Source: Candidatus Hermodarchaeota archaeon (GTDB taxonomy: Archaea > Asgardarchaeota > Lokiarchaeia > Sigyniarchaeales > SOKP01). From it: 64,000 nucleotides of DNA. The stretch covers positions 17,815-81,814 of the forward strand of contig JBHLLG010000008.1 in assembly GCA_048885925.1 (NCBI GenBank). Direction: 5' to 3'. The notes beneath the pieces are model-generated. The model ran no database searches and had not been told where the DNA came from. It saw only the letters and a program-made list of their open reading frames with translations. This document shows, piece after piece, positions 8,090-50,947 of this stretch. The position numbers were made by a program, and so were the translations under genes. Position 1 is the stretch's first letter. Each line of letters starts with the position of its first letter.

Positions 8090-9472
8090 ATGAAATATCT
8101 CTCAGACCTAAATTGGAGTATTTTGGAAATTTTCTTTTTAATCATCATATTCATTATTGGATTTTTGGTCACCTACATTATTCTCCCTTACATAATAAAA
8201 TTCATGAAAAGAAAAGGATACGTAGGTATTGATATACATAAAAATTCTAAACCTGAAATTTCTGAATCTGGTGGACTTGCAATAGTAATAGGTTTTACAT
8301 TTTGTTCTTTTTTTTTAATTTTATTTTTTCCCGCTTTTTTTAACGAAATAATAGTTTTTCTTTTAACAGTTTTGCTAACTGGGCTTATAGGATTTATTGA
8401 TGACCGTAAAAAATTACGTTCACGATATAAAATAGCTTTATCAATATTTTCTGGTGGAATTATATTTTTAGCAAATATATATGGAATTATAAACATATCA
8501 TCTCCAACAATTCCTTTTCTGTATCAGACTAGATTGACAATTATATATCCATTTTTAATTCCAATAATAGTAGCAGTCTTTGCTAATACAGTGAATATGT
8601 TAGAAGGATATAATGGTGAAGGATCAGGAACTTGTTTGATTGCAGTTTGTTTTTTATTTGTTTGTGGCATATTGTGGAATTCTGCTGAAGCAATAATTTT
8701 TACAGTTCCAGTAATAGCTGTTTTAATTCCTTTTTACTTATTTAATAAGTATCCTGCAAAAACTTTTCCAGGTGATATTGGAACTTTAAGTATGGGAGTA
8801 ATGATTGCATGTATTATGCTATTTGGATCATTAGAAGTAGCTACATTTTGTGCATTTTTAATCCATATTTTAAATAGTTTTTATTATATATATTCTGTGA
8901 AAGGATTTTTTGAAAGTAGTGATATTAGAGAAACTAAAGAGGACATCATTTTATTAGAAGATGATCAGATAAAAGCATCAGATCAGAAAGATGCTGTATT
9001 AACCTTACCTAGATTAATACTAGCTAAAGGACCCTTAAAAGAATCAAAATTGGTGAAAAATTTTTATGCTATCTCCTTAATATGTGGCTTTTTTTCGATA
9101 CTCTCTATCTTATTAATACAATTCACATTGGGAATTTTTAATATTTACATCTTAATAATACCTTTCATTATTTTTTTAGCCCCTACAATTTTAATTTTAT
9201 ATAAATTCCCCAGAATCAGAGGTATAATTCTTTTAATGATAATATTACTAATTTCTCTTTTATTATTCTTATTATTTATTAAATCTGTAATAATGCCTAT
9301 TCCATTTCCTGATATTGACCTTAAAGTAATTCAAATCCCCGTTAATCTATTAATTTCATTAATTTTAGTAATCCCTATCTTATTACTTTGGTATCTAATT
9401 ACTATAAAATATTTCTGGACAGAAATAAATAAAATGAAAAAATTTGAAGCTAGACATAAAACTTTAACTTAA
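8090..9472 (+). CDS. aglH: UDP-GlcNAc:dolichyl-phosphate GlcNAc-1-phosphotransferase (AglH/ALG7, MraY-like)
   Basis: G.DIHK..KP.I.ESGG, IGFIDD, ANTVNMLEGYNG, FNKYPAKTFPGDIGT motifs; extra C-terminal TM helices. Confidence 0.85.
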   Translation: MKYLSDLNWSILEIFFLIIIFIIGFLVTYIILPYIIKFMKRKGYVGIDIHKNSKPEISESGGLAIVIGFTFCSFFLILFFPAFFNEIIVFLLTVLLTGLIGFIDDRKKLRSRYKIALSIFSGGIIFLANIYGIINISSPTIPFLYQTRLTIIYPFLIPIIVAVFANTVNMLEGYNGEGSGTCLIAVCFLFVCGILWNSAEAIIFTVPVIAVLIPFYLFNKYPAKTFPGDIGTLSMGVMIACIMLFGSLEVATFCAFLIHILNSFYYIYSVKGFFESSDIRETKEDIILLEDDQIKASDQKDAVLTLPRLILAKGPLKESKLVKNFYAISLICGFFSILSILLIQFTLGIFNIYILIIPFIIFLAPTILILYKFPRIRGIILLMIILLISLLLFLLFIKSVIMPIPFPDIDLKVIQIPVNLLISLILVIPILLLWYLITIKYFWTEINKMKKFEARHKTLT

Positions 9473-17361: not shown

Positions 17362-18375
17362 ATGAAACAAACAAAAGAACAAGAATATAAAGTAGAATTA
17401 GAACTAGAAGAAAGAAAAGAACAAGGTATTATAATTAGTACTCTCTCATGGATTATCCATAATCTGAAATTTCTTTTTATACCGGGTTATAGGCTAGAAG
17501 AATTATCTATTCGGGAATTTGAATATGAAAAAACGATAAGTAAAAGAAAGTTTATACGACGATTAAAATCTCCATTAACCATATTAGGAATTTTAATTGT
17601 TTTTACGATCTCAACTTTTGCCGTGTTCCCGGAATGGCTTTCTCAATATACATTTGAACAAGCTAATGGTGTATTTTATGGTGCATGGCAGCCTGCCTCC
17701 TCAGGACACCCCCTCGGTACCACGGATTTTGGACGCGACATTTTAGCACGGCTCATTTATGGGGCAAGAGCTTCTTTGACAATTGCTTTACCGTCTATTG
17801 CTTTTAGTGTGGTTATTGGTGTTATCTTTGGAGTTATTTCCGGATATTACGGAGGATGGGTCGATTCATTAATAATGAGAATTATGGATATCTTCCTTGC
17901 GTTTCCGGGTTTGATCCTTGCTCTTGTATTTGTCGCAATTTGGGGCCCAAGGATGGAATATATAATGCTAGCTTTTGGAATTCTTGGTGTGCCCTATTAT
18001 TCACGATTAATTCGAGGAGTTGTATTGCAAGCGCGAGAATTACCTTATATTGAAGCCGCAAGAACATCGGGATCAGGAAATTGGAGAATAATGTTTAGAC
18101 ATATCCTTCCAAATACTATACAACCTATTATTATTTCTCTTACATTTAATATTGGTGGGATCATTTTGAGTTTAGCGGGTCTTGCCTTCTTGGGTTATAG
18201 TGATATCAGATTAATTGAATGGGGAAATGATATAAATGATGCACGGCTCCATTTATATGATGCTCCCTGGGCAGCGCTCTGGCCTGGTTTTATGATCCTA
18301 ATTGCTGTACTTGGTTTCATGTTAGTTGGTGATGGATTAAGGGATGCGTTAGATCCGAGATTGAAAAATTTATAA
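17362..18375 (+). CDS. dppC: peptide ABC transporter permease
   Basis: HPLGTTDFGRDILARLIYGAR, YIEAAR..G, GDGLRDALDPR. Confidence 0.95.
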   Translation: MKQTKEQEYKVELELEERKEQGIIISTLSWIIHNLKFLFIPGYRLEELSIREFEYEKTISKRKFIRRLKSPLTILGILIVFTISTFAVFPEWLSQYTFEQANGVFYGAWQPASSGHPLGTTDFGRDILARLIYGARASLTIALPSIAFSVVIGVIFGVISGYYGGWVDSLIMRIMDIFLAFPGLILALVFVAIWGPRMEYIMLAFGILGVPYYSRLIRGVVLQARELPYIEAARTSGSGNWRIMFRHILPNTIQPIIISLTFNIGGIILSLAGLAFLGYSDIRLIEWGNDINDARLHLYDAPWAALWPGFMILIAVLGFMLVGDGLRDALDPRLKNL

Positions 18376-41450: not shown

Positions 41451-42023
41451 ATGGCTCCAAATGAACGTGATGATAAAGAAGAGTTAGAAGAGTCAGATCA
41501 AAAGTTTGATAATGATTCAGAAGAAGATCTAGATTCGGATGAACAACCAGAAACTGATTTAGAGGATGAATTGAAAGAAGAATTAGAAGAAAAGGATATA
41601 GATACTGAATCAGAGTTAGATCGACTACGATTCAAGTATAGGGGTTATACCTTAGAGGAACTAAGAAAAATGAATATGGACCAATTTATACAGCTATTAC
41701 CAGCAAGAGCAAGACGTTCTCTGAAGCGTGGATTACCACCGAGACAAAAGAAGCTTCTTGAAAGGTTAAGAAGAGCATATAGAGCAAAGAAAAGAGGAAA
41801 AGATTTGCTCACTCGAACCCATGTAAGGGATATGATAATATTTCCTGAAATGGTTGGTTTAAAAATTGGAGTATACAATGGAAAAGAATATGTTACAGTT
41901 GATATTAAGCCAGATATGATAGCTCATTATCTAGGAGAATTTTCTCTCACAAGAAAAAGAGTTCAACATGGATCTCCTGGGATTGGAGCCACAAGAAGTT
42001 CCAAATATGTTCCATTGAAATAA
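41451..42023 (+). CDS. rps19: 30S ribosomal protein uS19 with acidic N-terminal extension
   Basis: [48 protein letters not shown]. Confidence 0.97.
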
Positions 42024-43392: not shown

Positions 43393-43590
43393 ATGGATAT
43401 AATAACGGCTGAAAAAATTCGAGAAATGGATGATCGAGAAAGACAAAGAGTTTTAGTTAGTTTAAGAGAGGAATTAATGATGCTTTATTCAATGCAAACA
43501 GGTGGCGGACTTTCTGACAATCCTGCAAAAGCTAAATTATTACGTAAACAAATAGCAAGAATATTAACTGTTATGAATGAAGAAAGATGA
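43393..43590 (+). CDS. rpl29: 50S ribosomal protein uL29
   Basis: IREM..., NP.....LRKQIARILTV; operon position. Confidence 0.93.
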   Translation: MDIITAEKIREMDDRERQRVLVSLREELMMLYSMQTGGGLSDNPAKAKLLRKQIARILTVMNEER

Positions 43591-43904
43591 TGATCGATCC
43601 TAAATATTTAATATATCATGACCTCATAGGTTTTGATACTTATGCTAAACCCTTATCAATGTCTTTAAGTACGAAATTCGTGAATATCGGTGTTGTAATT
43701 GATGAAACACGAAATATGTTAATTACTGAGAAGGATAATAAAATTAAGCGCTATATTAAGAAGAATTATATTTTTAGGTTTAAAATACCAAATTATGAAG
43801 ATAATGAAGAGGATTATTATTTAGAAGTTAACGGAATCAGGATTATTGGACTTCCTATAAATAGATTGAGAAGCCTAAAGAAGAAGAGGTGGTTAAAAAA
43901 ATGA
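43587..43904 (+). CDS. rnp1: ribonuclease P protein component 1 (Rpp29/Pop4)
   Basis: HDLIG, GVVIDETRNML, operon position. Confidence 0.9.
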   Translation: MMIDPKYLIYHDLIGFDTYAKPLSMSLSTKFVNIGVVIDETRNMLITEKDNKIKRYIKKNYIFRFKIPNYEDNEEDYYLEVNGIRIIGLPINRLRSLKKKRWLKK

Positions 43905-44254
43905 GTAGAAATATTGGGATCCCCGGAGTGGTTCCTCCTAAGACCAAACCCGAAGATTGTAAAGATCAGTCTTGTCCATTTCATGGAAATACAAAAATTA
44001 GAGGAAAAATCACTAAAGGGGTTGTTGTAAGTAAAAAGTCAAGAAATACTGTAATAATAAGACGAGATTATGTTCAATTTGTTAAAAAATATCAAAGATA
44101 TGAGCGTCGAAATACCCGACTTGCCTGTCATTTACCCGATTGTTTAAACAATGAGATTTTGGTTGGAGATTTGGTAAGAGTTGGAGAATCACGAAAAATA
44201 TCTAAAATGAAAGCATTTATAGTATTAGAGAAAATTGCAAGTGGGGTGATATAA
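43901..44254 (+). CDS. rps17: 30S ribosomal protein uS17
   Basis: RNIG, CPFHG..KIRG, KKYQRYERR, GESRKISK. Confidence 0.97.
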   Translation: MSRNIGIPGVVPPKTKPEDCKDQSCPFHGNTKIRGKITKGVVVSKKSRNTVIIRRDYVQFVKKYQRYERRNTRLACHLPDCLNNEILVGDLVRVGESRKISKMKAFIVLEKIASGVI

Positions 44255-44680
44255 GTGGGAACAAGAAGAAAATTAGGAAGAAAAACATATGTTAAACCCC
44301 GTACTAGCTATGGATTATGTAATGGTTCTAGAATAAATATTGCAGACAATTCTGGAGCAAAAATTGCCAAAATCATAAATGTGGATGGTTTTAAGACGAG
44401 GTTAAGAAGATTACCAAAAGCAACTGTTGGAAGTGTATGTACGGTTACAATAAAAAAGGGTAAACCAGAATTGCGAGGGAATATAGTAAAAGCAGTTATT
44501 GTTAGGCAAAAAATGATATACAGGCGACTAGATGGAACAAGACTTTGCTTCGAAGATAATGCTGGTGTATTAGTAACAAAAGAAGGTGATGCAAAAGCAA
44601 CCGAAATAAGAGGTCCAATTGCACGAGAAGCAGCTGAAATGTTTCCAAGACTCGCATCAATTTCGTCTTTGATAATATAA
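44255..44680 (+). CDS. rpl14: 50S ribosomal protein uL14
   Basis: ADNSGAK, KKGKPELR, AVIVRQK, FEDNAGV; GTG start 5 nt after GGTGA. Confidence 0.97.
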   Translation: MGTRRKLGRKTYVKPRTSYGLCNGSRINIADNSGAKIAKIINVDGFKTRLRRLPKATVGSVCTVTIKKGKPELRGNIVKAVIVRQKMIYRRLDGTRLCFEDNAGVLVTKEGDAKATEIRGPIAREAAEMFPRLASISSLII

Positions 44681-45885: not shown

Positions 45886-45914
45886 TTAAAAAATAAAAAT
45901 TTTGTGATTAAAGA

Positions 45915-46508
45915 ATGTCATCCAAAACTAAAATAAATAAACTAGATACCCTAACAAAAGAATTTGAAGAAAAATGGAAAAATCCAATGAAACGTCCATT
46001 TTTAGAAAAATTAACATTAAATATAGGAGTTGGAGCGGGAGGGGAGGAATTAGAAAAAGCAGTTACAGTCTTAGAAACAATAACAAATCAAAAAGCAATT
46101 AAAACACTATCTAAGAAAAATGTGAAGGAATTTAATTTAAGAAAAGGGCGTCCAATTGGGGCTAAAGTGACTATAAGAGGTCAAAATGCGGAAAAACTTC
46201 TCAAAAGATTATTAATTGTAAATAACAACAAAATCTTAGTAAGAAGTTTTGATGATTATGGAAATTTTGGTTTTGGAATAACAGAACATATTTCTATTCC
46301 AGGTATTGAATATGATAATACAATAGGTATATGGGGTTTAGACTGCATTGGTAGAGTAATAAGACCTGGAATGCGAGTAAAATTTAGGAGGAATAAACAT
46401 ACAAAAATTCCAAAATATCATTATGTTTCACGTGAGGAAACCCAATATTTTTTGATACAGACATTTGGAGTTGAGATTGTTAAAAAATTAGATTTAGAGT
46501 TCTTTTAA
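45915..46508 (+). CDS. rpl5: 50S ribosomal protein uL5
   Basis: NPM..P.LEKLTLNIGVG, PIGAKVTIRG, FD..GNFGFGI.EHI. Confidence 0.97.
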   Translation: MSSKTKINKLDTLTKEFEEKWKNPMKRPFLEKLTLNIGVGAGGEELEKAVTVLETITNQKAIKTLSKKNVKEFNLRKGRPIGAKVTIRGQNAEKLLKRLLIVNNNKILVRSFDDYGNFGFGITEHISIPGIEYDNTIGIWGLDCIGRVIRPGMRVKFRRNKHTKIPKYHYVSREETQYFLIQTFGVEIVKKLDLEFF

Positions 46509-46526
46509 AGATTAAGGTGAAAAAAG

Positions 46527-46676
46527 ATACCACAAGGTAAACATTATGGGAAGGGAGTACGCGAATGTAGGCGTTGCCATACTCATAGAGGCGTAATCCG
46601 GCGATATGGACTATATATTTGTAGAAGATGTTTCTATGAAATTGGTAAAGATATTGGATTTAAAAGATTTGAATAA
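46527..46676 (+). CDS. rps14: 30S ribosomal protein uS14 (zinc-binding), apparent ATA start
   Basis: Manual translation (M)[48 protein letters not shown]; in-frame TGA at 46518-46520 upstream; missing from the ORF track. Confidence 0.93.
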
Positions 46677-46711
46677 GTATTAATAAAAAATATAGAAAAA
46701 GGTGAAAAGAT

Positions 46712-47095
46712 ACGACAAATACAATAGCAGATGCATGTTGTGCTCTTAAAAATGCAGAAAGAGCACGTAAAAAAGAAGTAATAATTAGCCCTGCTTCTAA
46801 AATTCTACAACAGATATTTAGAATCTTTCAAAAACATGCCTATATCGGAGAATTCGAAAGATATGATGATGGACGTCAAGGAAAATTTAAAATTGCTTTA
46901 TTAGGAAAGATAAATGAATGTGCGGGTTTATTAAAGCTGAACTACAAGGTTACGCAATTTGAAATGTTAGAAAGAAAATTATTACCTGCACCTGGTTTAG
47001 GTATAATTATATTCACAACTAATCAAGGTATAATGACAATGAGAGAAGCAGAAGAAAAGGGAATAGGTGGAAATACTTTGTGTTATATCTATTAA
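46712..47095 (+). CDS. rps8: 30S ribosomal protein uS8, apparent ACG start
   Basis: Manual translation (M)TNTIADACCALKNAERARKKEVIISPASK...YIGEFERYDDGRQGKFKIALLGKINECAG...TTNQGIMTMREAEEKGIGGNTLCYIY*; in-frame TGA at 46703-46705 upstream; missing from the ORF track. Confidence 0.93.
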   Translation, partial: TTNTIADACCALKNAERARKKEVIISPASKILQQIFRIFQKHAYIGEFERYDDGRQGKFKIALLGKINECAGLLKLNYKVTQFEMLERKLLPAPGLGIIIFTTNQGIMTMREAEEKGIGGNTLCYIY

Positions 47096-47118
47096 TTCAA
47101 CCATGAGGTAAACATAAA

Positions 47119-47697
47119 ATGGTAAAAATTGCGTTCTTTAAGGAAGAATTAGAAATCCCTAAGGGTGTTGAAGTTAAATTGGAAGGTGGGCATCATATTA
47201 GGGTGAAAGGCCCAAAAGGAGATATTTTAAAAGACTTTTCTCACGTAAGAGGGATAAAAGTCTCTATTGAAGGAAATAAAATTATTTTTTCGACAAATTT
47301 CCCTAAGGGTGCAACTTTAGCTTTAATTAAAACAGTTGTTAGTATTATCAATAATTTAATTATTGGGGTTCAAACCAATTATAAATATGTCTCGAAAATC
47401 TGTTATTCACATTTTCCATGTAATTGTGAAGTGAAACCAGATAAACAAATGATTCAAATTGTAAATTTCTTAGGGGAAAAAGCACCAAGGAAAGCAAATT
47501 ATCCAGAAAATGTGAAAGTGGAGATACAGGGAGATGATATATATTTTATTGGACCCGATAAAGAATCATTAGGACAAGCAGCCGCTAATGTTCAAAAAGC
47601 ATGTCGTATCCGTAAAAAGGATCCACGAGTTTTTCAAGATGGAGTTTATCTATATAAAAGAATGCTTGGAGATGAAATCCTCTGGGAAATAAAGTGA
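47119..47697 (+). CDS. rpl6: 50S ribosomal protein uL6
   Basis: IPKGV, VKGPKG, YSHFP, NFLGEKAPR, KDPRVFQDGVY. Confidence 0.97.
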   Translation: MVKIAFFKEELEIPKGVEVKLEGGHHIRVKGPKGDILKDFSHVRGIKVSIEGNKIIFSTNFPKGATLALIKTVVSIINNLIIGVQTNYKYVSKICYSHFPCNCEVKPDKQMIQIVNFLGEKAPRKANYPENVKVEIQGDDIYFIGPDKESLGQAAANVQKACRIRKKDPRVFQDGVYLYKRMLGDEILWEIK

Positions 47698-47707
47698 GGG
47701 AAGTATC

Positions 47708-48199
47708 ATGGAAAAAAAAAGATTGTTAAAAATAAGAAAGGAAATAAGTAAGAAAAGACCTTCATTTAGGAGAGTAGAATCCTGGAGATATAAAAGAGTA
47801 AAAGATTCATGGAGAAAACCTATTGGGATTGATTCAGCAACTCGAAAAAAAGAAAAATCTGGGGTTAAATCGCCTACAGTTGGTTATAGAGGCCCTAAAA
47901 AAGTAAGAGGGATACATCCATCTGGATATGAAGAAGTGAGAATTACTAATTTAAAAGATTTATCTAATTTAAATAAAAAAAAGCATGCTATAAAAATTTC
48001 AGCTAGATTAGGTGCTAAAAAGCGTATTGCGGTTATTGATTACTGCCAAAAAAGAGGTTTTAAAATATTGAACCTAGGAATTTCACAAAAAGAACTTGAA
48101 CGGTTAGAAACAATAGTAAAAGCACCAATTTCTGATGAGGAAAGTGAGGAATTTCTTGATGTTGATAATTTAGAAGATTCTCTTGATTTAGAGGACTGA
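47708..48199 (+). CDS. rpl32e: 50S ribosomal protein eL32
   Basis: KRPSFRR, WRKPIGIDS, VGYRGP..VRGIHPSG. Confidence 0.96.
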   Translation: MEKKRLLKIRKEISKKRPSFRRVESWRYKRVKDSWRKPIGIDSATRKKEKSGVKSPTVGYRGPKKVRGIHPSGYEEVRITNLKDLSNLNKKKHAIKISARLGAKKRIAVIDYCQKRGFKILNLGISQKELERLETIVKAPISDEESEEFLDVDNLEDSLDLED

Positions 48200-48227
48200 G
48201 TTTAGAAATCAAAAGAGGAGATAATAA

Positions 48228-48689
48228 ATGAATTTAAAACCACAAAGAAGGATGGCTGCAGAAATTCTTAAATGTGGAGAAAATCGAGTTTATTTCGATC
48301 CATACTTAATAGAAGATATTTCTTTAGCAATTACAAGAGAAGATGTTCGCAATTTAATAAAACAAGGGGTAATTCAAAAAAAATACAAAGAAGGAATTTC
48401 AAAATATAGAAAAAACCTAACCCATGAAAGGAAGAAAAAGGGAAGAGCGAGAGGATTAGGAAAAAGAAAAGGTAAAAAGTATGCTAGAACACCAAAGAAA
48501 AGAGCATGGATAAGAAAAATTCGCCCAATTAGAAAAGAATTGAAAAAACTTAGAGATCGAAAGTTAATTACAGCAACTAATTATCGGAAATTATATAAAA
48601 ATGCTAAAGGTGGAATGTTTCATAGTGTTGCACAATTGAATAGGTATATTAAGGAAAAAGATTTAATTAGGAGAGGGAGAGGTCGCTAA
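48228..48689 (+). CDS. rpl19e: 50S ribosomal protein eL19
   Basis: QRRMAAEILKCG.NRV, AITREDVR.LI, RGLGKRKG...AR. Confidence 0.97.
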   Translation: MNLKPQRRMAAEILKCGENRVYFDPYLIEDISLAITREDVRNLIKQGVIQKKYKEGISKYRKNLTHERKKKGRARGLGKRKGKKYARTPKKRAWIRKIRPIRKELKKLRDRKLITATNYRKLYKNAKGGMFHSVAQLNRYIKEKDLIRRGRGR

Positions 48690-48691
48690 AA

Positions 48692-49285
48692 ATGGCAAAA
48701 GGTCCAAGATATAGAAGATCTTTTCGAAGAAGACATGATGGTAAAACTAATTACCAAAAAAGATCAAAATTACTAAAATCAAGAAGAATAAGATTAGTGC
48801 TAAGAGCTTCAAATAATCATATGAGAGTTCAAGTTATTCAATCTAAATTAGGAGGAGATAAGGTTTTAGTTTCTGCCTTTTCTAAGGAATTAACCTCAAA
48901 ATATGGTTGGACTGCTAATACTGGTAATATTCCAGCAGCTTATTTAACTGGTTATTTAGCTGGATTAAGGGCAAAAGCTAAAAAAATAAATGAAGCTATC
49001 TTTGATTTAAGCATATTTTATCACAAAAATCGAGTACTTGCTGGATGTAAAGGATTAATAGATGCAGGTCTCAATATTCCTTATCGTGAAGAATTTTTTC
49101 CAGAAGGATTAAATGATAGAATCAAAGGTGCTCATATTGAAGATTATGCCAAAACTTTAAAATCAAATGAACCAGAAAAATATGAAAAAATATTTTCCAG
49201 TTATATAAATATTAAAAAAATTAATCCATTGAAGTTTGGTCAAATTTTTTCAAATTCATTAAAAATTATTGAGACTAAAGCTTAA
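48692..49285 (+). CDS. rpl18: 50S ribosomal protein uL18
   Basis: MAKGPRY...FRRR..GKTNY, GNIPAAYLTG. Confidence 0.97.
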   Translation: MAKGPRYRRSFRRRHDGKTNYQKRSKLLKSRRIRLVLRASNNHMRVQVIQSKLGGDKVLVSAFSKELTSKYGWTANTGNIPAAYLTGYLAGLRAKAKKINEAIFDLSIFYHKNRVLAGCKGLIDAGLNIPYREEFFPEGLNDRIKGAHIEDYAKTLKSNEPEKYEKIFSSYINIKKINPLKFGQIFSNSLKIIETKA

Positions 49286-49299
49286 GAACGTGATATAAA

Positions 49300-49914
49300 A
49301 TGAGTCGTTTAAGAAGTATTGATGAAGAATGGGTCCCAAAAACAAAATTAGGTGAACTTGTTCAACAGGGCCTTATGACATTGGAAAAGATATTTCAAAA
49401 CAATTTAGTTGTAAAGGAAAAAGAAATTGTAGATGTTCTATTACCACAATTACGTGAAGATGTTATATCTATAAAAATGATCCAAAAGATGAGCGCTAGT
49501 GGGCAAAGAAGTAGATTTAAGGCAGTAGTAATTATAGGCGCTGATGGTTTCCTTGGTGTTGGAGCATCTAAAAGTAAAGAGGTTGGACCTGCTATTAGGA
49601 AAGCAATTGACAAGGCTAAACTTTCTGTTATTCCAATTCTTAGAGGATGTGGAAGTAAAGAATGTGGGTGTGGGGGTACTCATAGTATTCCTTTTAAAGT
49701 TCAAGGTAAATGCGGTTCAGTTAAAATCAAATTAATCCCGGCTCCTGCTGGTGTTGGATTAGCATGTGCAGACAAAGTAAAACAAGTGCTAAAACTATGC
49801 GGCATTGAAGATATATGGAGCAAAACCTATGGTGATACAAGAACAAGTGAAAATCTTGTAAAGGCAACTATTGATGCTCTCAAGCATGCACATAAATATA
49901 ACTTTAATTTATGA
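49300..49914 (+). CDS. rps5: 30S ribosomal protein uS5
   Basis: WVPKTKLG, AIRKAI..AK, RGCGS, HSIPFKV.GKCGSV, PAPAGVGL. Confidence 0.97.
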   Translation: MSRLRSIDEEWVPKTKLGELVQQGLMTLEKIFQNNLVVKEKEIVDVLLPQLREDVISIKMIQKMSASGQRSRFKAVVIIGADGFLGVGASKSKEVGPAIRKAIDKAKLSVIPILRGCGSKECGCGGTHSIPFKVQGKCGSVKIKLIPAPAGVGLACADKVKQVLKLCGIEDIWSKTYGDTRTSENLVKATIDALKHAHKYNFNL

Positions 49915-49931
49915 AAAAGAGTGGTGTTTAA

Positions 49932-50456
49932 ATGGCTATGGCAAAAAAAAACCCAAAGGTAAAGGAGTCAGAATTTCAACCAAAGCTTTATTTTGCAATT
50001 CGAATAAGGGGCGCTCCTGGGATGAAAGGTAAAATATCAGATACGTTGAAGATGCTTAAAATGCATAAAGTAAATCATGGTGTACTTATATGGGGTATTC
50101 CTTCATATAAAGGCATGTTAGTAAAATGTAAAGATTATATTGCTTATGGAGAAATTGATGAAAAAACATTAATCAGATTACTAAGAGTGAGAGGAAAAGT
50201 CGAAGGTAATCATACTCTAACAGAAGAACATATTAAAAATTTAACTAATTATAAAAATTTTAGAGAATTAGCTAAAGCCCTATTGAACGGTGAAATTCAG
50301 TATCGTGAAAAAGATATATATAAAATTAAACCAGTTTTTCGATTACATCCCCCCAGAAAAGGACATCGAGGGACATTAAAGAAACATTTCAATGAGGGAG
50401 GAACACTGGGTCATGTTGGAATTTATATAAATGAATTAATTCACAAAATGTTATAA
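49932..50456 (+). CDS. rpl30: 50S ribosomal protein uL30
   Basis: AIRIRG, KDYIAYGE, KPVFRLHPPRKG. Confidence 0.96.
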   Translation: MAMAKKNPKVKESEFQPKLYFAIRIRGAPGMKGKISDTLKMLKMHKVNHGVLIWGIPSYKGMLVKCKDYIAYGEIDEKTLIRLLRVRGKVEGNHTLTEEHIKNLTNYKNFRELAKALLNGEIQYREKDIYKIKPVFRLHPPRKGHRGTLKKHFNEGGTLGHVGIYINELIHKML

Positions 50457-50467
50457 TAATAAGGTGA

Positions 50468-50947
50468 GTGATAATTACAAGAAAATTTCCTAAGAAAGTC
50501 CGAAAAATGCGAGGCAGTCGTACACATGGCTATGGTAGAGTAGGTCAACATAGAAAAACGGGACAAAGAGCTGGAAGAGGAAAAACTACTCAATGGAAAA
50601 AAAGCATGTATAGTTATTATTTAAAGCAGAAAGAACTTGGATTTCCTGATCCTGATTGGGATTTGGGAAAAAAAGGCTTTAAAAGACCTCAAGATATTAA
50701 CAGAATCTATCAAGTTAATACTATAAATATTAAAGATTTAGACCATAAAATCGAGAAATTTGTTATCAATAAAAGAGCAACTAAATCTGGAAATAAATAT
50801 AACATTAATTTGAATGAGCTTAACATTCAGAAATTATTAGGTAGAGGAGAAGCCAATAAAGCGATTAATGTTATTGTTAATAAAGCTTCTAAAAAAGCAA
50901 TTGAAAAAATTGAAGCTGCTGGTGGTAAAATTACTTTATTAACTTAA
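50468..50947 (+). CDS. rpl15: 50S ribosomal protein uL15 (start GTG 50468 or ATT 50474)
   Basis: RKMRGSRTHGYG..GQHR, GK.GF, KLLGRG, A.EKIEAAGG. Confidence 0.96.
   Translation: MIITRKFPKKVRKMRGSRTHGYGRVGQHRKTGQRAGRGKTTQWKKSMYSYYLKQKELGFPDPDWDLGKKGFKRPQDINRIYQVNTINIKDLDHKIEKFVINKRATKSGNKYNINLNELNIQKLLGRGEANKAINVIVNKASKKAIEKIEAAGGKITLLT

Follow-up and report, generated by a model that had tools for sequence, protein, structure and literature searches.

The 64,000-nucleotide stretch analyzed here (the window; positions 17,815 to 81,814 of contig JBHLLG010000008.1, Candidatus Hermodarchaeota archaeon, assembly GCA_048885925.1) carries a gene cluster in the order uS19, uL22, uS3, uL29, RNase P p29, uS17, uL14, uL24, eS4, uL5, uS14, uS8, uL6, eL32, eL19, uL18, uS5, uL30 and uL15. 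Pfam matches and the order of open reading frames (ORFs) identify it as the usual archaeal ribosomal protein set. Three of its genes, uS14, uS8 and uL15, appear to begin at ATA, ACG and ATT, respectively, each 6 nucleotides (nt) after a full Shine-Dalgarno (SD) motif GGTGA, and the full motif occurs in the cluster only at four non-ATG starts: these three and the GTG of uL14. A preliminary description of the window had drawn attention to this arrangement and to its surroundings, and re-reading of the sequence confirmed all four of its statements on the latter: GTTGA followed after 6 nt by TTG at uL22, TGTGA after 6 nt by ATG at uL29, CGTGA after 6 nt by ATG at uS5, and GGTGA after 5 nt by GTG at uL14. 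The assembly (G000) comprises 3.9 Mb with a GC content of 29% and is 95% complete, and its genus is represented by 53 species genomes in the collection.

The uS14 gene provides the clearest case. Its GGTGA is followed by the spacer aaaaag and ATA, the TGA of the motif forms an in-frame stop, and the whole frame of 49 codons is devoid of ATG, GTG and TTG. We compared 38 uS14 loci, originating from 36 genomes of the genus (this one included) and two metagenome contigs. Codon 1 was ATA in 22 loci, ATT in 12, ATC in three and GTG in one (L146); none has ATG, and 37 of the 38 carry ATH (ATA, ATT or ATC). The spacing after GGTGA equals 6 nt in 35 of 38 loci. Families outside the genus possess a uS14 with a longer N-terminus and an ATG start, and database homologues beginning with MPQTK and VPQGK place their canonical start at exactly the ATA codon. 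NCBI records likewise describe uS14 as a 49-residue protein starting with M-P-Q-G-K. The identity of the gene is supported by its place between uL5 and uS8 and by homologues recorded at NCBI under the name 30S ribosomal protein S14. We also compared 5.1 kb of the window with contigs of four runs from four studies, one of which may have supplied the assembly itself. In run X5, a contig of 2,677 bases spans positions 45900–46673 with six differences, none of them inside 46516–46529, and the start region is identical.

For uL15, whose identity is supported by a Pfam PF00828 match of 59.2 bits (above the cut-off), the preliminary description had expected a weaker case, given that a GTG directly abuts the SD. 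The comparison turned this around: the abutting GTG is not conserved and the ATT is. In 17 of the 24 congener loci compared the ATT is unchanged; there it is followed by ACx or TCA and then by AGA or CGA (T/S-R-K-F), and ATT ACA AGA aligns exactly with the ATG ACG CGx (M-T-R-K/N-F) of two outgroups, L055 and L056. Residues between ATT and the next ATG are preserved through synonymous changes. Two of the 17 ATT loci have an ATG immediately 5′ of ATT, and the seven other congeners have an ATG one codon after; L053 has no canonical start at all, the downstream ATG included. The start region is identical in contigs of runs X1, X3 and X12, which belong to three studies. A start at the GTG (50468) would give the listed ORF 50468–50947, and the alternative ATG at 50507 is conserved in most congeners, but we consider either of them very unlikely to replace ATT. 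The GTG has 0 nt of spacing from the SD and its position is occupied in other loci by ACC, GTA, AGA, GGA, ACG, AGG, AAA, ACA or others, including a TGA stop in L040. The ATG has no SD and is missing in L049, L053 and the outgroups, and the residues T-R-K-F-P-K-K-V-R-K that precede it are conserved down to the outgroups.

The same combination of motif and codon recurs across the genome. We collected all GGTGA motifs in which the TGA is followed in frame by at least 65 open codons (n = 94 ORFs) and recorded the codon 6 nt downstream (N6). This codon was ATH in 36 ORFs and ATG, GTG or TTG in 23, compared with ATH in 21 of 282 codons at N9, N12 and N15 of the same ORFs (Fisher p = 2e-11). Behind AGTGA, TGTGA or CGTGA (collectively HGTGA), ATH remained at background (19/206) and canonical starts accounted for 68 of 206; background values were also obtained behind GHTGA, other NNTGA, GGTAA and NNTAA. 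In a spacing series, for which a filter for a nearby upstream stop was applied, ATH followed GGTGA in 8/68 cases at N4, 22/74 at N5, 42/116 at N6, 10/74 at N7 and 2/77 at N8, while ATG usage was even across spacings of 4–8 nt. Altogether, 64 ATH codons and 54 canonical starts stand at N5–6 behind GGTGA, with an ATH background of ~10% not subtracted. ACG, CTG, AAG and AGG showed no genome-wide excess behind GGTGA. Since the ATH excess is confined to full GGTGA at 5–6 nt, weak codons need the complete five-base SD at a tight spacing.

The scan thus confirmed, for ATH, the genome-wide pattern that the preliminary description had proposed to look for, and it upheld SD-positioned near-cognate initiation for ATA and ATT, but not for ACG, which is not a used class. 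The related claim that the strongest SD is paired with the weakest start holds in one direction: ATH is found in excess only behind the full GGTGA, and uS14 retains GGTGA at N6 in 35 of 38 loci, compared with GGTGA in 1 of 39 ATG/TTG loci of uS8. The converse does not hold, as ATG genes do not avoid GGTGA: at 5–6 nt there are 28 ATG sites with GGTGA and 101 with HGTGA, in a genome where G is rare. Within the GGTGA class, we did not see a longer SD at ATH than at ATG sites, and the flanking bases were A at −1 in 58% vs 64% and T at +1 in 31% vs 18%, respectively. Outside the genus, an outgroup from another family of the order (G031, 31% GC; first 1.2 Mb) had ATH in 4/47 and canonical starts in 19/47 cases at N6, with no excess, and yet another genus (G029, 35% GC; a 0.99 Mb sample) had ATH in 10/36 at N6 vs 7/74 at N9 and N12 (p = 0.02).

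As a check that does not rely on the SD, we scanned with Pfam 20 of the 42 ORFs with ATH or ACG at N6 behind GGTGA, chosen for their length or for a distant next canonical start. In 16 of the 20, the domain begins (at profile position 1–6) ahead of the next canonical start; the remaining four gave no information. Among such ORFs are those for an aldehyde ferredoxin oxidoreductase, an IMP dehydrogenase, a short-chain dehydrogenase, a GFO/IDH/MocA oxidoreductase, a BcrAD/BadFG ATPase, a RagA-like GTPase, a response regulator, a HIT protein, an O6-methylguanine transferase DNA-binding domain, uS10 and Spt4. The uS10 gene, which lies outside the window, has ATA in 19/19 congener loci and GGTGA in 18 of them; in outgroups, six loci have ATG behind xGTGA, aligned to the ATA, and one (G029) has ATT. 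Since the 16 genes are of varied function, the habit is general rather than a device of ribosomal proteins. Tuning of ribosomal stoichiometry, one of two purposes that the preliminary description had suggested, is not indicated, as about 64 ORFs of all kinds share the trait.

Taken together, these data suggest that the intact, essential genes uS14 and uL15 are translated from AUA and AUU, respectively, through near-cognate initiation positioned by the SD, as part of a genus-wide and genome-wide trait (a probability of about 0.85). The reading is carried by the absence of canonical starts, the orthology of ATH with ATG, the SD dependence and the lineage distribution, and on this sequence evidence we regard the trait as a real, lineage-wide variant of known near-cognate initiation. 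Mechanistically, the 3′ end of 16S rRNA (...GGAUCACCUCC) would pair with a perfect GGUGA, and this pairing would place the codon 5–6 nt downstream in the P site, where the ordinary initiator tRNA (anticodon CAU) would be accepted despite the third-position mismatch. The weak codon would work only with a full SD at tight spacing, and ATG and TTG genes would tolerate weaker SDs and spacings of 4–8 nt. In scope, this would be a habit of the genus, with uS10, Spt4, the initiation factor gene aIF1 and roughly 45–60 other genes starting likewise. As a whole, covering AUA/AUU starts, mechanism and genus-wide scope, we judge this explanation to be quite likely. The contigs of this assembly do not include the 16S 3′ end, which reads ...GGATCACCTCC in the congener G021 and the outgroup G031. 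ARAGORN reported 12 tRNAs without introns allowed and 29 with introns; one initiator-type tRNA gene was found, with anticodon CAT, A1:U72 and three G:C pairs in the anticodon stem. This gene (G000:C24:31211-31314, minus strand) contains a 25-nt intron just 3′ of the anticodon loop. The role of Met-tRNAi as the initiator, the efficiency of ATH starts and any regulatory role are inferences.

The uS8 gene proved to be of a different kind. Its sequence is as the preliminary description gave it: GGTGA, the spacer aaagat and ACG, with the TGA in frame and the first canonical codon 84 codons in. The Pfam PF00410 match (85.6 bits, above the cut-off) begins at residue 4. The ACG itself turned out to be weaker than had been claimed, being private to this assembly: among 40 loci, codon 1 is ATG in 33, TTG in six and ACG in one, so that, unlike for uS14, close relatives (39/40) do carry ATG or TTG. 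The uS8 SD elsewhere is AGTGA, TGTGA, CGTGA or weaker, with GGTGA in one of the 39 ATG/TTG loci, where it precedes ATG, and in the ACG locus. On public record, the uS8 of this genome (P0001) is a 123-residue protein called from the in-frame ATA four codons past the ACG; it begins with MADACC and is 4 residues short. Another lineage at NCBI (P0002; 93% identity; two accessions), known from the protein call alone, has the same 123-residue call with codon 1 skipped, which points to a small clade sharing the absence of a table-11 start at this codon; an ENA protein with 92% identity has the full MTNTL start. A metagenome scan for the uS8 start of the same species returned only two contigs, both of other species, with uS14 ATA and uS8 ATG. 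Judging from the upgraded SD and the sister call, we lean slightly toward the ACG being real and still serving as the start. It would reflect a recent ATG-to-ACG change in this species, probably also in one sister lineage, which came with an SD upgrade from xGTGA to GGTGA, and ACG most likely remains a poor start codon. In the congener G022, a second, partial uS8 copy (C7:199727-199870) covers residues 2–49 with 92% identity.

Several observations weigh against the proposed reading. The uS14 frame scores 25.8 bits against Pfam PF00253, below the cut-off of 27, over profile positions 6–52 of 54. Congeners are not independent, and tallies taken across them overstate the support. No RNA runs carrying the stretch are listed, and the starts are read from the DNA sequence. 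A second initiator-like anticodon arm was not found, in a weak search that yielded 29 ARAGORN tRNAs for a 95% complete assembly. ACG follows GGTGA at N6 in 2 of 116 cases genome-wide, equal to background. The uS8 start is covered by a contig of run X5 with two differences whose positions are not displayed.

The tRNA data bear on the idea that a dedicated second initiator tRNA, or an Ile-tRNA, reads AUH. The use of all three Ile codons, along with the disuse of CTG, ACG, AAG and AGG, would fit such a decoder, but the sole initiator-type gene has CAT, albeit in poor tRNA detection, and we consider this idea extremely unlikely. The layout of the operon raises another alternative, in which weak codons serve only ribosomes that finished the upstream gene immediately before, i.e., by termination-reinitiation and not by de novo SD-led initiation. 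The uS14 start lies 18 nt after the uL5 stop and the uL15 start 17 nt after the uL30 stop, and reinitiation could contribute at both, which is also to be counted against SD-led initiation. However, ATH sites with a long upstream ORF that terminates less than 60 nt away are not enriched (14/49, vs 21/54 canonical GGTGA and 25/130 HGTGA sites), and aIF1 is a stand-alone gene preceded by ~380 nt of intergenic DNA in which a promoter-like box is conserved; we therefore find reinitiation as the general explanation improbable.

In the case of uS8, the ATG-to-ACG change may merely have shortened the protein, with translation starting at the in-frame ATA (46724) four codons later. ATA belongs to the start class used by this genome, both public calls (P0001 and P0002) begin there with MADACC, and ACG is not enriched behind GGTGA, all of which counts against initiation at ACG. 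On the other hand, this ATA lies 18 nt past GGTGA, ATH being at background beyond 7 nt, and no SD precedes it; a start there would also drop T-N-T, although the other 39 loci always retain the N and almost always the T/S, and the Pfam S8 match extends from residue 4. We consider a start at this ATA unlikely, though well worth keeping in mind. Apart from uS8, the sole other ACG candidate at N6 belongs to a small GTPase gene (G000:C86:10802, minus strand), where ACG stands 6 nt after GGTGA (TKISLVGLSGCGKTS), with ATT two and TTG four codons later.

In a further alternative, errors of sequencing or assembly conceal true ATG codons. For uS14, uL15 and uS10 this is excluded by the same codon class in 37/38, 17/24 and 19/19 assemblies, respectively, and by public contigs of other studies. 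It is uS8 that keeps the explanation alive: ACG occurs in this assembly only of the 40 loci, a single T-to-C error would explain it, and the two undisplayed differences in X5 could include one at 46712–46714. Nevertheless, the call without codon 1 recurs in a second lineage (two accessions), and the ACG locus has a uniquely upgraded SD. Overall, we see only a small chance that errors underlie the unusual codons.

A further gene with an unusual start, located on contig C24 of the assembly, encodes the initiation factor aIF1 (SUI1), which rejects non-canonical starts. ATT is present in 20/20 congener loci with visible sequence, in a frame that consists of a stop, one or two codons, ATT AAA GAC GAC ... 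and a CPxC zinc knuckle, and none of ATG, GTG and TTG occurs ahead of the knuckle. GTGA precedes the ATT by 9 nt. Upstream, the 20 loci have in common a promoter-like AAAGATTTTTATAAG box in the intergenic DNA, which is conserved, and the motif GGTTGTGA, which is invariant. The other purpose suggested in the preliminary description, a sensing of initiation fidelity, gains a lead from this ATT start but stays hypothetical. Elsewhere, the aIF1 start is ATA in G029, TTG in G031 and G024, ATG in G034 and G028, and GTG in G038. When paired with the frequency of ATH at N6 behind GGTGA, an ATT start of aIF1 goes with 42/116 (G000), ATA with 10/36 (G029) and TTG with 4/47 (G031). This hints that the ATH excess tracks an ATH-initiated aIF1 in these three genomes, where the cause could run either way, and aIF1 may simply share the general ATH habit of its lineage. 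We tentatively raise the possibility, by analogy with known feedback systems, that this genus of Lokiarchaeia-type Asgard archaea has relaxed start-codon stringency, with the set point maintained by an aIF1 gene that starts at AUU and thereby restricts its own expression. A second SUI1 copy in the congener G007 (C18:24958-25173) is broken by TAA.

Table 1. Location of the genes and signals discussed in the text. Plain coordinates refer to the window; those of uS10, Spt4 and aIF1 refer to contigs of the assembly (G000).
Feature	Position	Strand	Remarks
uS14 SD, GGTGA	46516..46520	+	Would pair with UCACC of the 16S 3′ end; TGA (46518–46520) is an in-frame stop; present in all 38 genus loci
uS14 gene	46527..46679	+	49 codons + stop; start ATA 46527–46529
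uS8 SD, GGTGA	46701..46705	+	TGA (46703–46705) in frame; full GGTGA in only this locus and L147 among 40
uS8 gene	46712..47097	+	Codon 1 ACG 46712–46714; alternative in-frame ATA 46724–46726 is the start of the public 123-residue call
uL15 SD, GGTGA	50463..50467	+	
uL15 gene	50474..50947	+	ATT 50474–50476, 6 nt after SD; GTG 50468 (0 nt) and ATA 50471 (3 nt) ahead in frame; conserved in-frame ATG 50507
uL5 gene	45915..46508	+	ATG start, TGTGA 7 nt upstream; TAA stop 18 nt before uS14 start, same frame
uL14 start	44245..44257	+	GGTGA, 5 nt, GTG; fourth full GGTGA of the cluster
uS10 gene	G000:C1:336948-337250 (L082:11-313)	-	Outside the window; ATA start behind GGTGA
Spt4/RpoE2-type zinc-finger gene	G000:C2 about 9011-9196 (L083:11-196)	-	62 codons, no canonical start; ATA 6 nt after GGTGA
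aIF1 (SUI1) gene	G000:C24:8656-8973 (L171:1426-1743)	+	ATT is the sole possible start

Start-codon rules are built into every gene caller, and NCBI translation table 11 includes ATT, ATC and ATA among its starts. The NCBI aIF1 records have 105–113 residues, start with M-K-D-D-D and are named YciH, and since its uS14 and aIF1 records begin at ATH codons, the NCBI pipeline evidently accepts such starts. The aIF1 calls of this clade in JGI, ENA and Logan have 90, 84, 76 or 70 residues and no zinc knuckle. The statement in the preliminary description that such genes are systematically missed by gene callers is therefore half right: it does not apply to the NCBI calls of uS14 and aIF1 and does apply to the shortened aIF1 calls of the other three. 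Prodigal-type pipelines shorten the aIF1 of this lineage by 15 to 35 residues, removing the zinc knuckle, and have no canonical start to find for uS14 in the 37 of 38 loci with ATH.

If the genus has indeed relaxed its start-codon stringency, AUA, AUU and AUC behind a perfect SD would be working starts for 1–2% of genes, including those for essential ribosomal proteins, and a second-position near-cognate such as the ACG of uS8 could persist once its SD had been strengthened. The putative aIF1 loop, if true, would represent a third, independent version of the feedback known for IF3/infC and eIF1. The initiation factors of Asgard archaea are those from which the eukaryotic system developed, and the lineage may serve as a natural experiment on how stringency is set, with third-position near-cognates on essential, abundant proteins and a weak start on a fidelity factor.

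Further features were noted in the cluster. It opens after a sugar kinase gene and a mannose-6-phosphate isomerase-like gene, with no uL3, uL4, uL23 or uL2 upstream. The uS19 gene (window 41451–42023) has 190 codons, of which the Pfam S19 domain takes up residues 89–173 only, leaving an N-terminal extension of ~88 residues. The RNase P p29 gene and uL29 have a 4-nt overlap (the p29 and uS17 entries are window 43587–43904 and 43889–44254), and uS17, if begun at its listed GTG, shares 16 nt with p29; an ATG four codons further in may be the true uS17 start.

Known systems offer parallels to both classes of unusual start. Initiation at ACG occurs in eukaryotic and viral mRNAs, and the ACG of uS8 is likewise a second-position near-cognate at a well-placed start site; unlike in those systems, it is a single private case, ACG not being a used class in this genome. 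For the AUH starts, the closest printed parallel is found in Staphylococcus aureus. The relevant part of one report (PMC13009471) lists infC (AUA), cvfC1 (AUU), ccpN (AUA) and citZ (AUA) of this species, next to E. coli infC and pcnB (AUU), as having extended SD motifs, and puts the output of such S. aureus starts at about 10% of that of AUG. As with the bacterial starts, the codons described here are near-cognates that deviate at the third position, their SD is strong, well spaced and conserved, orthologues have ATG, and the weak codon relies on the SD. They differ in that they would operate in an archaeon, whose initiation factors (aIF1, aIF1A and aIF2) are of the eukaryotic type, in that they are frequent (the counts of ATH and canonical codons at N5–6 given above, background included), and in that they include those of highly expressed essential genes (uS14, uL15 and uS10) rather than of low-abundance regulators.

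With respect to archaea, the passages on start sites in a review of archaeal initiation (PMC7531240) mention only AUG, GUG and UUG starts and describe SDs as "not prevalent" in the single Lokiarchaeote genome then available; the corresponding passage of a 2026 review (PMC12993045) repeats the latter statement. Our literature search did not turn up any paper that describes AUH starts in Asgard archaea or a weak start of aIF1. The genus shares with canonical archaeal SD-led initiation the anti-SD, the GGUGA core, the layout of the ribosomal operon and leadered mRNAs, and departs from it in a subset of genes that join a perfect SD with AUH.

Finally, the aIF1 start resembles two systems of autoregulation. 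Bacterial IF3 (infC, AUU) and eukaryotic eIF1 (AUG in a poor context) are reported, in the sections of PMC4705826 and PMC6237735 that treat them, to be autoregulated via their own weak starts, and the former source also states that the 30S complex of S. solfataricus binds an AUU mRNA only without aIF1. Unlike infC and eIF1, aIF1 is subject to a feedback that is so far putative, its ATT lies 9 nt after GTGA and not 5–6 nt after a full motif, and in related lineages a canonical start is located four codons upstream. Like them, aIF1, the archaeal homologue of eIF1, would depend on a weak codon of its own: ATT is the only possible start in 20/20 congeners, and the 5′ region is conserved.

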